64,000 nucleotides of DNA from Escherichia phage T5. Both the position numbers and the translations under genes were made by a program. Shown here one piece after another: positions 28,667 through 37,163 of the stretch (the first letter of the stretch is position 1; every line of letters begins with the position of its first letter). The stretch is from the sequence record NC_005859.1, one strand, 5' to 3'. Below the pieces are notes generated by a model. It was given only the letters and a program-made list of their open reading frames with translations. It was not told the origin of the DNA and did no database searches.

Positions 28667-28741
28667 TGGTGCTCCCACTAGGAATCGAACCCGGTTCAGA
28701 TGCTTACAAGGCAACTGCATCACCAACAATGCTTTAGGAGC
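28667..28741 (-). tRNA. tRNA-Thr (anticodon UGU)
   Basis: CCA encoded; anticodon loop CTTGTAA; one mismatch in each of anticodon and T stems. Confidence 0.6.
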
Positions 28742-29176: not shown

Positions 29177-29252
29177 TGGAGCGGCTAGAGGGAATCGAAC
29201 CCTACTCAGCGAGGCTTGGAAGGCCTGCGACACAACCCGTGTGCTTAACCGC
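29177..29252 (-). tRNA. tRNA-Gly (anticodon UCC)
   Basis: CCA encoded; anticodon loop CTTCCAA; acceptor stem 7 bp with one GU. Confidence 0.65.
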
Positions 29253-29259
29253 GATTATT

Positions 29260-29337
29260 TGGCAGGGGATATTGGATTTGAACCAATGATCTCGACTTCA
29301 AAGGCCGAAGCTTTAGGCCAAGCTAAGCTAATCCCCA
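29260..29337 (-). tRNA. tRNA-Gln (anticodon UUG)
   Basis: CCA encoded; anticodon loop CTTTGAA; perfect T-stem. Confidence 0.6.
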
Positions 29338-29343
29338 ATTGTT

Positions 29344-29419
29344 TGGCAGAAGGTAGTGGGTTCGAACCACGATCAGTGGTTTCAGAGATCCCAGCCTTAA
29401 CCGACTTGGCTAACCTTCT
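29344..29419 (-). tRNA. tRNA, anticodon arm atypical (possibly Gln-CUG)
   Basis: perfect acceptor stem AGAAGGT/ACCTTCT, D-stem AGCC/GGCT, T-loop TTCGAAC, CCA encoded; only 3/5 pairs in best anticodon stem. Confidence 0.4.
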
Positions 29420-29978
29420 TCTTAATACTTTTTGGATCTTTACCTGTTAAGGATTTATAACGTTTACGTAGTCCGTTATCAGATAATCCTAACTCTTTTG
29501 ATGCTTTAACCCATGAATAGTTTATTACCCAATATTCTATTTGCTCTGCTGTAATATCAGGGCTACTCTTAGGTTTACAATCAAAACAAGTTTTAGATGA
29601 AGAATTTATTTGTTTATTACAGTAAGGGCATTTATTACCACCTATTGTATGTCCTCTTTCAACTGTAGTTTTTATTCTATGATCTTGCTTGGTCATGACT
29701 ACTAGATTATCTAAGGAAAAATTCAATTTATTCCTATCTTTGTGATCCACTTCTAGCTCAGATTCTAGTGAAGGTAAATCTTTAAATACTCTAGCTAGTA
29801 ATCTATGTAATACGATAGAGACATTCTTGCCCTGTTCATAGAATGTTACAAACGGATATCCTGCACTACCTAAATGATGTGTGAGTAATTTATTACTCTT
29901 GGTAGAGTAAACTTCTCCATATGGAGAGATTAAGTATTCGGGATATTCCGGAATTACTTTGAAATTTTCTAATTTCAT
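29397..29978 (-). CDS. HNH homing endonuclease
   Basis: 193 aa; HNH core EVDHKDRNKLNFSLDNLVVMTKQDH plus C-terminal Zn-ribbon/HTH tail; 3' end overlaps adjacent tRNA. Confidence 0.8.
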   Translation of the reverse strand: MKLENFKVIPEYPEYLISPYGEVYSTKSNKLLTHHLGSAGYPFVTFYEQGKNVSIVLHRLLARVFKDLPSLESELEVDHKDRNKLNFSLDNLVVMTKQDHRIKTTVERGHTIGGNKCPYCNKQINSSSKTCFDCKPKSSPDITAEQIEYWVINYSWVKASKELGLSDNGLRKRYKSLTGKDPKSIKKKVSQVG

Positions 29979-29979
29979 C

Positions 29980-30180
29980 TTATTCTACAGGAACCGTGGC
30001 GATTGGCTCAGGTTCTTCAAGGCGCTTACCTTCATGATCTACTCGAATGACTCCGCATCCTTCGCAAACCACAACTGCACCATAACCTTCTTTGACTTCG
30101 GCTTCTGTAATCAGACCAGATAAGTCACCAGTATCTCTGCCCCACATATCAATGGAGCATTGTTTGCAGAAATCAGCCAT
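29980..30180 (-). CDS. zinc-ribbon small protein
   Basis: 66 aa; CxxC...CxxC. Confidence 0.45.
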   Translation of the reverse strand: MADFCKQCSIDMWGRDTGDLSGLITEAEVKEGYGAVVVCEGCGVIRVDHEGKRLEEPEPIATVPVE

Positions 30181-30205
30181 ATTTTATTTCCTATTTAAGT
30201 TAATT

Positions 30206-30282
30206 TGGGGTGGCTAGTGGAATTCGAATCCACATAGGCCTGATTCACAATCAGGATCATTAACCAATTATGATATAGCCAC
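30206..30282 (-). tRNA. tRNA-His (anticodon GUG)
   Basis: CCA encoded; discriminator C; anticodon loop TTGTGAA; perfect anticodon and T stems. Confidence 0.75.
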
Positions 30283-30511
30283 AATTGAAAACTCGCAGGG
30301 TTAGCGAAACCATCCTCAATTAGCATGTTCTAGAATACTAATCAAGTTATCTCCTATTGCACGCAGCTCAAGACGAGTACGAATTTTCAATTGTGGCGGC
30401 TCTCAGAAACTCTTCTATTCTAGCCCCAGAAGCTTACCCCCGAACGCATGTCGGGAAAGTCTTTCCAAGCGCATCAAATAGCACCGTTACACTTTGAGCC
30501 ATTGATATATC

Positions 30512-30596
30512 AAGGAACAGAAGGAGTTGAACCTTCACGAGATAGACCATTTATCTCAACCGCTTTTAAGGTATATTTCTAGGAGCGGATGTTCCT
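30512..30596 (-). ncRNA. tRNA-like structured RNA (non-canonical)
   Basis: perfect acceptor-like helix AGGAACA/TGTTCCT and T-arm GAAGG/TTCAACT/CCTTC, but internal region folds as two hairpins instead of D and anticodon arms; no CCA. Confidence 0.3.
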
Positions 30597-30844
30597 AGTA
30601 AACCTATTCGGCAGTCCCGTCTACCAATTCCGGCATATTCCAAGAATTTTTTATAAACCAGCAGAAGCCTCATTTAAAGCATCAACAATAGCTTCACGCT
30701 GGGTCATTCCATACCCAGTGGAGTCTAGGTGAGGCAAATAGGCTGCCCATCCATTATCTGTTTCATGAAGGCATGCTTTAAATTTTTTACCGTCCTTCAT
30801 TGTTACAGTAACTGTTTTGCTCATAAGGATTCCTTATAGTTAAT

Positions 30845-30934
30845 TGGAGGAAGGTAATGGAGTCGAACCATCACCGTATCACTACAGCGGGCTAGTTTTC
30901 AAGACTAGTTGCGTACCACTACGCCCTACCTTCC
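30845..30934 (-). tRNA. tRNA-Ser (anticodon UGA), class II
   Basis: 90 nt with long variable arm; anticodon stem-loop ACTAG/CTTGAAA/CTAGT; CCA encoded. Confidence 0.65.
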
Positions 30935-30941
30935 ATTTGTT

Positions 30942-31035
30942 TGGCGGAAAAGATGGGAGTTGAACCCATAAGGCAATATTGCTATTACTCAACCGATTTC
31001 CAATCGGGTTTAGTCGCCAGTCTATTTGCTTTTCC
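30942..31035 (-). tRNA. tRNA-Ser (anticodon GGA), class II
   Basis: ~94 nt; anticodon loop TTGGAAA; CCA encoded; 5' end overlaps stop of HNH gene 31022..31606. Confidence 0.55.
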
Positions 31036-31606
31036 GTTGTTCTGTTAATACTTTTGGGCTTAATCCAGTTAGTTTAGTATACCTCCTGCGCAAAGTGGAC
31101 TCTGATACTTCTAACTCTTTAGCTGCCTTAACCCACCCCATTAATAAAACCTTTTCAGTTATGTCGTCTAAAGACAATTCTGGTTTTATCAACCTTCCTG
31201 TAGGTTTTGGCTTACAATTTGTACATGTTACAGATCTCTGAAGCATTAGACTCCCACATAGGGGGCAAGGTACTCTACTGTCAGACCACCCATTATCTTT
31301 ATTAGTTTTCCTCTGATGTTCTATTTTTGATAGGACTTGAAGATTATCTTTAGATAGATTCAGTCTATCTCTATCCTTATGATCTACCTCTAATTCAGGG
31401 TCAAATAGATTATATAAGTCCCCAAATACATGAGAAATAATTCGGTGTATAAGTACAGAGGTTTGTTTACCATTTATCTGTAATTTTACAGCAGGGTATC
31501 CATCAACTATATATCTTGATAAAACTTTATTAGTAAATGTAGAGAACACATCCCCCGCCTCATTTACTAAATACCCTGGTGCATCTTTTATTGGTACAAA
31601 CTGCAT
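31022..31606 (-). CDS. HNH homing endonuclease
   Basis: 194 aa; paralog of 29397..29978 (same HNH core and C-terminal tail); 3' end overlaps tRNA-Ser. Confidence 0.8.
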   Translation of the reverse strand: MQFVPIKDAPGYLVNEAGDVFSTFTNKVLSRYIVDGYPAVKLQINGKQTSVLIHRIISHVFGDLYNLFDPELEVDHKDRDRLNLSKDNLQVLSKIEHQRKTNKDNGWSDSRVPCPLCGSLMLQRSVTCTNCKPKPTGRLIKPELSLDDITEKVLLMGWVKAAKELEVSESTLRRRYTKLTGLSPKVLTEQRKSK

Positions 31607-31623
31607 ACATAAATCCTATGAGT

Positions 31624-31708
31624 TGGTGGGGCTAGGGAGACTCGAACTCCCACGCATTTAAGCTACGGAATCTAAGGCCGTATTGTCTACCAGTTCCAGC
31701 ATAGCCCC
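31624..31708 (-). tRNA. tRNA-Leu (anticodon UAG), class II
   Basis: 85 nt; perfect T-stem; anticodon loop CTTAGAT; CCA encoded. Confidence 0.6.
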
Positions 31709-31713
31709 GAATT

Positions 31714-31789
31714 TGGTGGACAAAGAGGGACTCGAACCCTCCCTACCAGATTGCAAGTCTGGTGTGCTCCCGCTGACACTATTCGCCCA
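31714..31789 (-). tRNA. tRNA-Ala (anticodon UGC)
   Basis: anticodon loop CTTGCAA with perfect stem; acceptor stem carries the G3:U70 Ala identity pair; CCA encoded. Confidence 0.75.
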
Positions 31790-32026
31790 AATTATTTAGT
31801 TTACTAAGGCTATTAGCTCGGCGTAACTACAGCACCTTCGCTTCAAGCGGAAGGAACCGCGTCATCTCGCAAACCCAATACACTATTCAGTTGCCGCTGA
31901 ATCTAGTGGACTAATCTAGAACTTCTCCCAAATCGTAGGGATCGTGCTTTTTGGCAGCCAGTCCTAGGTCGAGCTAATACCTTAGTGAACTATGATGGGG
32001 ATTTCTCCTCATCAATTTATATAAAT

Positions 32027-32055
32027 ATTATAACAAGAAATTAAGCATTAAGCAA
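32027..32055 (-). promoter_or_regulatory. T5-type early promoter
   Basis: minus-strand TTGCTT-N17-TATAAT; no ORF for ~230 nt downstream (31800-32020). Confidence 0.65.
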
Positions 32056-32080
32056 CTGCGTTTTTGAAATTTCTTGGACT

Positions 32081-32154
32081 TGGTACTCGGTGATAGAATC
32101 GAACTATCACAACCGCCGTGTAAAGGCGGGGTTCTCCCATTATACTAACCGAGC
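32081..32154 (-). tRNA. tRNA-Val (anticodon UAC)
   Basis: anticodon stem-loop CCGCC/TTTACAC/GGCGG perfect; CCA encoded. Confidence 0.7.
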
Positions 32155-32161
32155 AAAAATT

Positions 32162-32239
32162 TGGTGGGTTGCACAGGACTCGAACCTGTAACCTATGGTT
32201 TAAAAGACCAGTGCTCTAAACCAGTTGAGCTAGCAACCC
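32162..32239 (-). tRNA. tRNA-Lys (anticodon UUU)
   Basis: anticodon loop CTTTTAA; perfect acceptor and T stems; CCA encoded. Confidence 0.65.
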
Positions 32240-32427
32240 TTAGTAACCATTATATACTTCTTTAATAGTATGGACTTTCAAATAAAGGTGATTAGTACTA
32301 AACTCCGCCATTACTTCTTTTTCATTTTTTCCATAATGTGCAAGTAAGGATTTTGATGTATTCTTACCTAAACGTTTGTCACTTACTACTAATCGAAATA
32401 CTTTCATTTCGAAATCCTCTATTAAAA

Positions 32428-32505
32428 TGGAAGCGGGTGCAGGAATCGAACCTACCTCTTTCTAGCTTATGAGACTAGCGATCTCTACCAGAGATCTAAC
32501 CCGCA
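32428..32505 (-). tRNA. tRNA-Met (anticodon CAU)
   Basis: anticodon loop CTCATAA; 1:72 position unpaired (U/U); CCA encoded. Confidence 0.6.
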
Positions 32506-33951: not shown

Positions 33952-34029
33952 TGGCGGTTCCTGCTGGATTCGAACCAGCAACCCTCAACTTAACAAGATG
34001 CCGCTCTAACCAATTAGAGCTAAGGAACC
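33952..34029 (-). tRNA. tRNA-Asn (anticodon GUU)
   Basis: canonical loop TTGTTAA but anticodon stem has two mismatches; perfect acceptor and T stems; CCA encoded. Confidence 0.5.
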
Positions 34030-35095: not shown

Positions 35096-35170
35096 TGGTG
35101 CACCCTGTTCGAATTGAACGAACCTCTCAAGCTCTTCAGGCAAGCGCTAATCCATCTCAGCTAAAGGTGC
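35096..35170 (-). tRNA. tRNA-Phe (anticodon GAA)
   Basis: perfect T-stem and D-stem; anticodon loop CTGAAGA; anticodon stem has two U:U mismatches; CCA encoded. Confidence 0.5.
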
Positions 35171-35256: not shown

Positions 35257-35333
35257 TGGCGTCCTGTGTGGGGATCGAACCCGCAAACCCTACCTTGAAA
35301 GGGTAGTGACTTTACCAGTTTGTCTAACAGGAC
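35257..35333 (-). tRNA. tRNA-Glu (anticodon UUC)
   Basis: anticodon stem-loop CTACC/CTTTCAA/GGTAG perfect; perfect acceptor stem; CCA encoded. Confidence 0.75.
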
Positions 35334-37085: not shown

Positions 37086-37163
37086 TGGTGGCTCCCCGAG
37101 GATTCGAACCTACGTACCTTCCAGTTATGAGCTGGGTGCTCATACCATATGAGCTTGAGAACC
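37086..37163 (-). tRNA. tRNA-Met (anticodon CAU), second copy
   Basis: anticodon loop CTCATAA; D-stem GCTC/GAGC; acceptor stem with two GU pairs; weak T-stem; CCA encoded. Confidence 0.55.

Follow-up and report, generated by a model that had tools for sequence, protein, structure and literature searches.

A lineage-specific, probably impaired allele of the tRNA-Gln(CUG) gene tRNAQ2 in Escherichia phage T5

We analysed a 64,000-nt stretch of the Escherichia phage T5 genome (NC_005859.1; hereafter the window), in which each coordinate equals the AY692264 coordinate minus 3. The tRNA gene under study occupies 29344–29419 on the minus strand, is 76 nt long with an encoded CCA, and is the annotated T5 gene tRNAQ2 (tRNA-Gln, "codon recognized: CAG"; GenBank AY692264 and AY587007); as a gene it is already known. 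The 601 bases around it were 100% identical to T5 in both records, and the same form of the tRNA was present in three separately deposited T5 assemblies (AY692264, strain st0; AY587007, ATCC 11303-B5; and a 121,750-bp record in IMG/VR). The original prediction had placed a tRNA at these coordinates, which is right, and left the minus strand unstated. ARAGORN called tRNA-Gln(ctg) at 29344–29419, and the Rfam tRNA model RF00005 scored 39.1 bits (local; gathering score 29, E = 3.4e-7). Its likeness to a tRNA is far above chance and its score passes the threshold, yet the score is among the lowest of the tRNAs in the window. The minus-strand cluster housing tRNAQ2 (Q2 below) comprised 23 tRNAs by ARAGORN and 21 by Rfam at the gathering score. 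Positions within the gene are given as index p, which corresponds to window coordinate 29420 − p.

The HNH homing-endonuclease coding sequence T5p059 (29397–29978, minus strand; GenBank, with Pfam HNH_3 and NUMOD4 domains) runs into the tRNA, its last 23 nt overlapping index 1–23 and its stop codon being index 21–23. This HNH gene sits within the 3′ end of the ORF60/T5p060 homologue, whose last 13 codons, DPKSIKKKVSQVG-stop, it reuses and which run into the tRNA. An RNase P cut at the tRNAQ2 5′ end would leave the endonuclease mRNA with no stop codon. The overlap between coding sequence and tRNA also exists in phages lacking the HNH gene, and the tRNA is intact in ten other HNH-carrying phages, so that homing of the HNH gene does not account for the lesion described below. 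Six nucleotides downstream of Q2 lies tRNAQ1, tRNA-Gln(UUG) (29260–29337, minus strand), which is canonical (54.5 bits), has no T5-private change and is likely the functional Gln tRNA of T5. Promoter and terminator scans around tRNAQ2 returned no more sites than expected by chance.

Several other RNAs of the cluster were recorded in passing. The tRNA-Gly(UCC) gene (29177–29252, minus strand) is present in the T5 GenBank records and received no call from ARAGORN or the Rfam tRNA model, matching the tRNA-Sec model only, below threshold (26.7 bits). This T5-type Gly(UCC) appears to be a conserved non-canonical tRNA: the odd allele is kept in FFH1, VAH1, Elw, SA001, KookSpook, C13 and an Epseptimavirus (26–31 bits), and a canonical Gly(UCC) of 57–65 bits occurs in Es2, DaisyDussoix, DT57C, DT571/2, Gostya9 and Bas32. 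A tRNA at 37089–37163 (minus strand), adjoining tRNA-Ser(GCU), was detected by Rfam (38.2 bits) and left uncalled by ARAGORN in T5; the tRNA that relatives have at this site carries a CAU anticodon and is annotated as Met or Ile. The ARAGORN call "tRNA-Ser(act)" at 41431–41504 (minus strand) has weak acceptor and anticodon stems and is without Rfam support at the gathering score; similar sequence occurs in DT57C, where the area is annotated as a stable "RNAX", and in Bas32. At about 30284–30644 (minus strand), between tRNA-His and the tRNA-Ser pair, the T5 record lists the stable RNAs RNA1, RNAI and RNAIII, and the DT57C annotation lists the further stable RNAs RNA2H, RNA3 and RNAX.

The tRNAQ2 transcript reads, from the minus strand, AGAAGGU-UA-GCCA-AGUCGGUUA-AGGC-U-GGGAU-CUCUGAA-ACCAC-UGAU-CGUGG-UUCGAAC-CCACU-ACCUUCU-G-CCA. 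Its pairings were taken from the Rfam alignment and the ARAGORN structure, which agreed. The acceptor strands AGAAGGU and ACCUUCU pair at 7/7 positions and CCA is encoded, as had been predicted; the discriminator is G73. The anticodon CUG (29383–29385, index 35–37) lies in the predicted 7-nt loop CUCUGAA (29381–29387), which is canonical with U33 and a purine at position 37, whereas the stem falls short of the usual 5 bp. Its 5′ strand GGGAU (29388–29392) and 3′ strand ACCAC (29376–29380) form G27-C43, G28.A42, G29-C41, A30.C40 and U31-A39, confirming the count of 3/5 pairs; other registers and loop sizes, read from the sequence, also gave at most 3/5. The remaining arms were judged too favourably in the original prediction. 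The T arm (29355–29371), described as well formed, has a canonical loop, UUCGAAC, but a closing C49.U65 mismatch leaves its stem CGUGG/CCACU with only 4/5 pairs. The D stem, described as 4/4, has three Watson–Crick pairs plus A13.A22 in the canonical register, and reaches 4/4 only in a shifted register (AGCC/GGCU). Because A13.A22 was found in 13/13 distinct alleles and in E. coli tRNA-Gln(CUG), which has the same D arm (GCCA...AGGC), it is a family trait and not a sign of decay.

A blastn search with the 76-nt gene retrieved 30 phage records representing about 20 distinct Tequintavirus phages. The neighbouring Q1/Gly region is common to about 310 records, so that most T5-like phages are without the Q2 allele. 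We compared all 19 distinct homologues retrieved plus one metagenome contig. These orthologous tRNA-Gln(CUG) genes (FFH1, fp01, Cit2, WP85, VAH1, Bas32/IrisVonRoten and others) occupy the same position as in T5, between the ORF60/HNH gene and tRNA-Gln(UUG), share 85.7–96.1% identity with tRNAQ2 by blastn, and are identical to it in the acceptor stem, D arm, anticodon loop, T loop and 23-nt overlap with the upstream coding sequence. They differ in the stems that are defective in T5. The anticodon stem is 5/5 in 19 relatives and in the metagenome contig, which carries the same allele (an exception, Gostya9, is treated below); it combines GGGGU with ACCCC, ACCCU, AUCCU or ACCUU, the sole variation being G-C to G.U. 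The T stem is AGUGG/CCACU, 5/5, in all relatives and the contig. Among the alleles compared, GGGAU/ACCAC and CGUGG/CCACU occurred only in the three T5 assemblies. Rfam scores were 52.1–58.0 bits for the intact relatives' alleles against 39.1 for T5.

The T5-specific form was found in no other phage among the blastn homologues, in IMG/VR or in the metagenome scan: the IMG/VR scan returned known isolates only, and the metagenome scan one contig with an intact allele. No double compensatory changes supporting the cloverleaf by covariation were seen within the Q2 family, which is 96% identical and hence uninformative in this respect. Epseptimavirus phages have at the syntenic site a canonical tRNA-Gln(CUG) that is unrelated to the T5 allele (Rfam, 60.0 bits; about 45 records match at 99% or more), in agreement with the paper on BF23, which credits that phage with a tRNA-Gln-CUG "of its own" (PMC10644984).

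Ungapped alignment revealed seven T5-private positions in tRNAQ2, spanning index 31 to 49. One is a G-to-A transition at index 31 (window 29389; standard position 30), which creates A30.C40. The others lie in an 8-nt patch, ACTGATCG, at index 43–50 (29370–29377, minus strand), which an exhaustive inversion test identified as the reverse complement of the relatives' index 44–51 (CGATCAGT). In that test the FFH1 allele with the 8-nt replacement and G31A gave the T5 allele exactly. The A placed at index 43 creates G28.A42, and the private inversion explains this mismatch, the C49.U65 mismatch in the T stem and the shift of the variable loop; together with the G-to-A change it accounts for the stem and score deficit of the T5 allele. 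In the ancestral DNA the region is a quasi-palindrome, AACCCC-GATCA-GTGGTT, with one arm mismatch. In T5 it is a perfect 17-nt palindrome, AACCAC-TGATC-GTGGTT (index 39–55; 29365–29381).

Templated strand-switch mutation characteristically corrects one arm and inverts the loop, as seen here, and quasi-palindrome templated mutations of this kind were reportedly described in phage T4 and E. coli by Ripley and colleagues. The T5 change resembles them in that an imperfect repeat was made perfect, one arm changed as if the other had served as its template, and the loop was inverted; unlike in the published cases, the mechanism in T5 is deduced from the end product alone. By this analogy we infer a templated strand-switch origin, although one substitution plus a 1-nt insertion and a 1-nt deletion could yield the same product. 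Clustering of the T5 differences relative to the flanks was not significant (P about 0.1–0.4), because the flanks are fast-evolving and 10–15% divergent; the case for a single event is the exactness of the reverse-complement match. On comparative grounds, the odd anticodon stem is a lesion of the T5 lineage and not a designed feature.

To place these mismatches in context, whole tRNA clusters of T5, FFH1, DT57C, Epseptimavirus chee130_1 and Bas32 were compared. A 3/5 stem is insufficient to diagnose a pseudogene: in the ARAGORN structures of other T5 tRNAs, Phe and Asn also have 3/5 anticodon-stem pairs, and Thr, Lys, Met and Leu have 4/5. Experiments have shown activity against PARIS for the Asn, Thr and Lys tRNAs of T5 (PMC12409363), and since tRNA-Asn is active despite its 3/5 stem, such a stem on its own proves nothing. 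The anticodon-stem mismatches of T5 Phe, Thr and Met were identical in every relative carrying the allele, and the T5 Asn allele was identical in Epseptimavirus; the Phe, Asn, Thr and Met mismatches are therefore maintained traits. For tRNA-Phe(GAA) (35096–35170, minus strand) these are U28.U42 and U29.U41, and for tRNA-Asn(GUU) (33952–34029, minus strand) G27.A43 and U30.U40, both the same in relatives from two genera. Their maintenance is possibly linked to evasion of nucleases that cut anticodon stems.

Q2 shares with the Phe(GAA), Asn(GUU) and Thr(UGU) tRNAs of the T5 family its cluster and its non-Watson–Crick oppositions in the anticodon stem, but relatives from two genera have the very mismatches of these tRNAs, whereas those of Q2 occur in T5 alone, alongside a broken T stem and a hairpin that competes with the cloverleaf. 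Ten other T5 tRNAs had no T5-private changes. tRNA-Ser(UGA) (30845–30934, minus strand) had nine, eight of which form four compensated pairs; against the chee130_1 and Bas32 alleles these are 1/86, 6/81, 11/24 and 29/41. Such compensated pairs are textbook covariation, a signature of structural selection. Q2, with seven private positions, three broken pairs and no compensation, was an outlier among the T5 tRNAs. In two other genes a T5-private G-to-A change breaks a T-stem pair: tRNA-Thr(UGU) (28667–28741, minus strand; CCGGG/CCUAG, relatives' CCUGG) and tRNA-Glu(UUC) (35257–35333, minus strand; GCGGG/CCCAC, relatives' CCCGC). A 2026 preprint reported that T5 tRNA-Thr(UGU) gave partial rescue from the OLD tRNase, and that the Thr tRNAs of Bas32, Bas33, T4 and HK446 gave strong rescue; the private T-stem mismatch offers an alternative explanation to "intrinsic resistance" for this partial effect.

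The changes in Q2 also alter its predicted folding. In computed models that omit tertiary contacts, modifications and protein chaperoning, and for which the intact relatives serve as internal control, the gap between the cloverleaf and the minimum-free-energy fold was 9.9 kcal/mol for the T5 allele versus 2.5 kcal/mol for that of FFH1. Introduced singly, the inversion gave a gap of 7.0 kcal/mol and the G-to-A change one of 2.9 kcal/mol. Computed pairing probabilities for the anticodon stem and T stem were about 0 in T5 versus 0.98 and 0.94 in FFH1. As RNA, the T5 palindrome forms a 6-bp hairpin in which the 3′ anticodon-stem strand pairs with the 5′ T-stem strand. In isolation (index 39–55) it was calculated at −5.9 kcal/mol versus −1.9 for the ancestral sequence, and its ensemble probability was 0.60–0.70 versus 0.004 for the intact FFH1 allele. 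Relative to the intact alleles, the T5 mismatches cost about 19 bits and about 8 kcal/mol of cloverleaf stability. The new hairpin is thus predicted to compete with the tRNAQ2 cloverleaf and the transcript to misfold.

The identity set of E. coli GlnRS comprises U35, G36, the discriminator base, the 10-25 pair and the acceptor pairs 1-72 and 3-70 (PMC9976931). Q2 and its intact relatives have U35, G36, G73, G10-C25 and G2-C71, with A1-U72 and A3-U70. The relatives' Q2 would be read as a canonical cloverleaf with most GlnRS identity elements. E. coli tRNA-Gln(CUG) (glnV/glnX type) shares with Q2 the CUG anticodon, G73, G10-C25, G2-C71, A13.A22, A37, the D arm and a weak first pair. It differs at that pair (U1-A72 versus A1-U72 in Q2), at the third pair (G3-C70 versus A3-U70) and at position 38 (U versus A), and its anticodon stem CCGGA/UCCGG is perfect, unlike that of T5 Q2. 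The two have no nucleotide homology detectable by blastn, and the phage allele had no blastn match in 5,426 E. coli genomes, so that a host origin of tRNAQ2 is not supported. Our literature search found no published expression, processing or aminoacylation data specific to T5 tRNA-Gln(CUG). A study of retron Eco2 lists a T5 "tRNA-Gln" among the RNAs cut during infection and leaves unstated which tRNA-Gln it is.

Selection on the gene seems weak. In the Gln(CUG) alleles of DT571/2, DT57C and Gostya9 the acceptor stem is broken at C5.C68 and C6.C67 and G8 replaces U8, and these alleles scored 44.3, 39.8 and 33.5 bits, respectively; Gostya9 has an additional A28.C42, and the anticodon stems of DT571/2 and DT57C are intact. 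In these three sequences (L019, L020 and L021) the tRNA lies at positions 701–776 and the upstream coding sequence overlaps it by 46 nt. The C13 allele has a 6-67 mismatch. The damage in DT571/2, DT57C, Gostya9 and C13 is independent of the T5 lesion, and this independent damage, together with the absence of the gene from most T5-like phages, fits weak selection. The deletion mutant T5_123, which lacks 29191–32442 including the Q2 region, is viable. CAG accounts for about 47% of Gln codons in the open reading frames of the window, and E. coli genomes each matched host tRNA-Gln(CUG) at a median of four places, including near-identical Gln isoacceptor genes. Decoding of CAG in T5 presumably relies on the host tRNA-Gln(CUG), and possibly on Q1 as well.

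We conclude, with a probability of about 0.72, that T5 Q2 is a lineage-specific impaired allele, hypomorphic or dead, that is, an incipient tRNA pseudogene. Intact homologues exist, three pairs are broken by lineage-private and uncompensated changes, and the score is lower by about 19 bits. Of the possibilities raised in the original prediction, a decaying pseudo-tRNA is the one that the comparative data back. A tRNA that needs modification to fold is unlikely, because the relatives fold without such help on the same backbone, and a tRNA-derived regulatory RNA found no support, the T5 form having turned up in none of the other phages or metagenome contigs sampled. The locus is the T5 copy of an accessory tRNA-Gln(CUG) gene, present in a subset of Tequintavirus phages and canonical in relatives of T5. 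A strand-switch-type templated inversion of 8 nt at index 43–50 probably perfected the quasi-palindrome, and a G-to-A transition at standard position 30 was the second event. Between them, the two changes cost the anticodon stem two pairs and the T stem its closing pair and create the 6-bp hairpin, so that the transcript is predicted to misfold and Q2 is most likely hypomorphic or dead. T5 could tolerate the lesion because the host supplies tRNA-Gln(CUG), T5 itself encodes an intact tRNA-Gln(UUG) 6 nt further downstream, and laboratory growth does not depend on any of this region.

Against an impaired allele, both ARAGORN and Rfam accept Q2, and the lesion spares its acceptor stem, D arm, anticodon loop and T loop. 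Q2 might still work as a tRNA-Gln(CUG) and read CAG with an efficiency that is normal or somewhat lowered, for example if G.A formed an imino pair and A+.C a protonated wobble, aided by modifications and tertiary contacts. In keeping with this, Q2 passes the Rfam gathering score, retains the acceptor stem, G73, G10-C25, U35 and G36, and would serve a codon that is common in T5; its 3/5 stem is matched by those of T5 tRNA-Phe and of tRNA-Asn, which is functional. We nevertheless consider a working tRNA unlikely. Unlike those of Phe and Asn, the Q2 mismatches are private to T5, at pairs kept in every relative; a third mismatch disrupts the T stem, the lesion creates a stable competing hairpin, the predicted cloverleaf population collapses, and the Rfam score drops by about 19 bits.

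It is very unlikely, in our view, that T5 Q2 has acquired a new role, either as a nuclease decoy or through a change in RNase P processing at the overlapping 3′ end of the HNH mRNA. In the former case, a misfolded tRNA-like RNA combining an intact acceptor/T minihelix with the new hairpin would bait a host nuclease that targets tRNAs; in the latter, expression of the homing endonuclease would be tuned, its stop codon being inside the tRNA. Highly improbable, too, is an adaptive change by which Q2 resists, or decoys, a host defence nuclease that targets tRNAs. The cluster does contain a nuclease-resistant tRNA, tRNA-Lys(UUU), and some of its tRNAs are proven anti-defence substitutes (PMC12409363). 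T5 tRNA-Lys provides the precedent: it acts against AriB of PARIS, a nuclease whose cut falls between anticodon-stem positions 40 and 41, and T5 tRNAs are nuclease-resistant substitutes in which anticodon-stem substitutions give resistance (PMC12409363). Conserved anticodon-stem mismatches are common in T5-family tRNAs, and the substrates of retron Eco2 include host and T5 tRNA-Gln. Against such a gain, the variant occurs in T5 only, in no other phage or metagenome contig, and the relatives and the metagenome contig keep a paired stem, so that it is not a conserved trait. A broken T stem and favoured misfolding would harm a substitute tRNA, Eco2 nicks acceptor stems and not anticodon stems, and our literature search identified no nuclease aimed at the tRNA-Gln anticodon stem. 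An artefact in the T5 reference, conceivable because the change is local and palindromic and old Sanger reads were liable to compression in such sequence, can be dismissed as extremely improbable, the sequence being identical in AY692264, AY587007 and the IMG/VR record.

The importance of the impaired Q2 allele is mainly practical, and the lesion opens no new biology. It may also serve as a neat case from nature in which a templated inversion at a quasi-palindrome inactivated the gene of a structured RNA. Studies of counter-defence tRNAs use T5 as their reference phage, and its tRNA set is usually accepted as "23-24 tRNAs". The lesion in Gln-CUG, with the T-stem mismatches in Thr-UGU and Glu-UUC, matters for the cloning of T5 tRNAs, for counts of decoding capacity and for comparisons of T5 with phages of the Bas collection. 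More speculatively, reference T5 may carry several private structural tRNA lesions, in Gln-CUG, Thr-UGU and Glu-UUC, and if so, these could explain why its tRNAs sometimes perform more poorly in counter-defence than those of its relatives.
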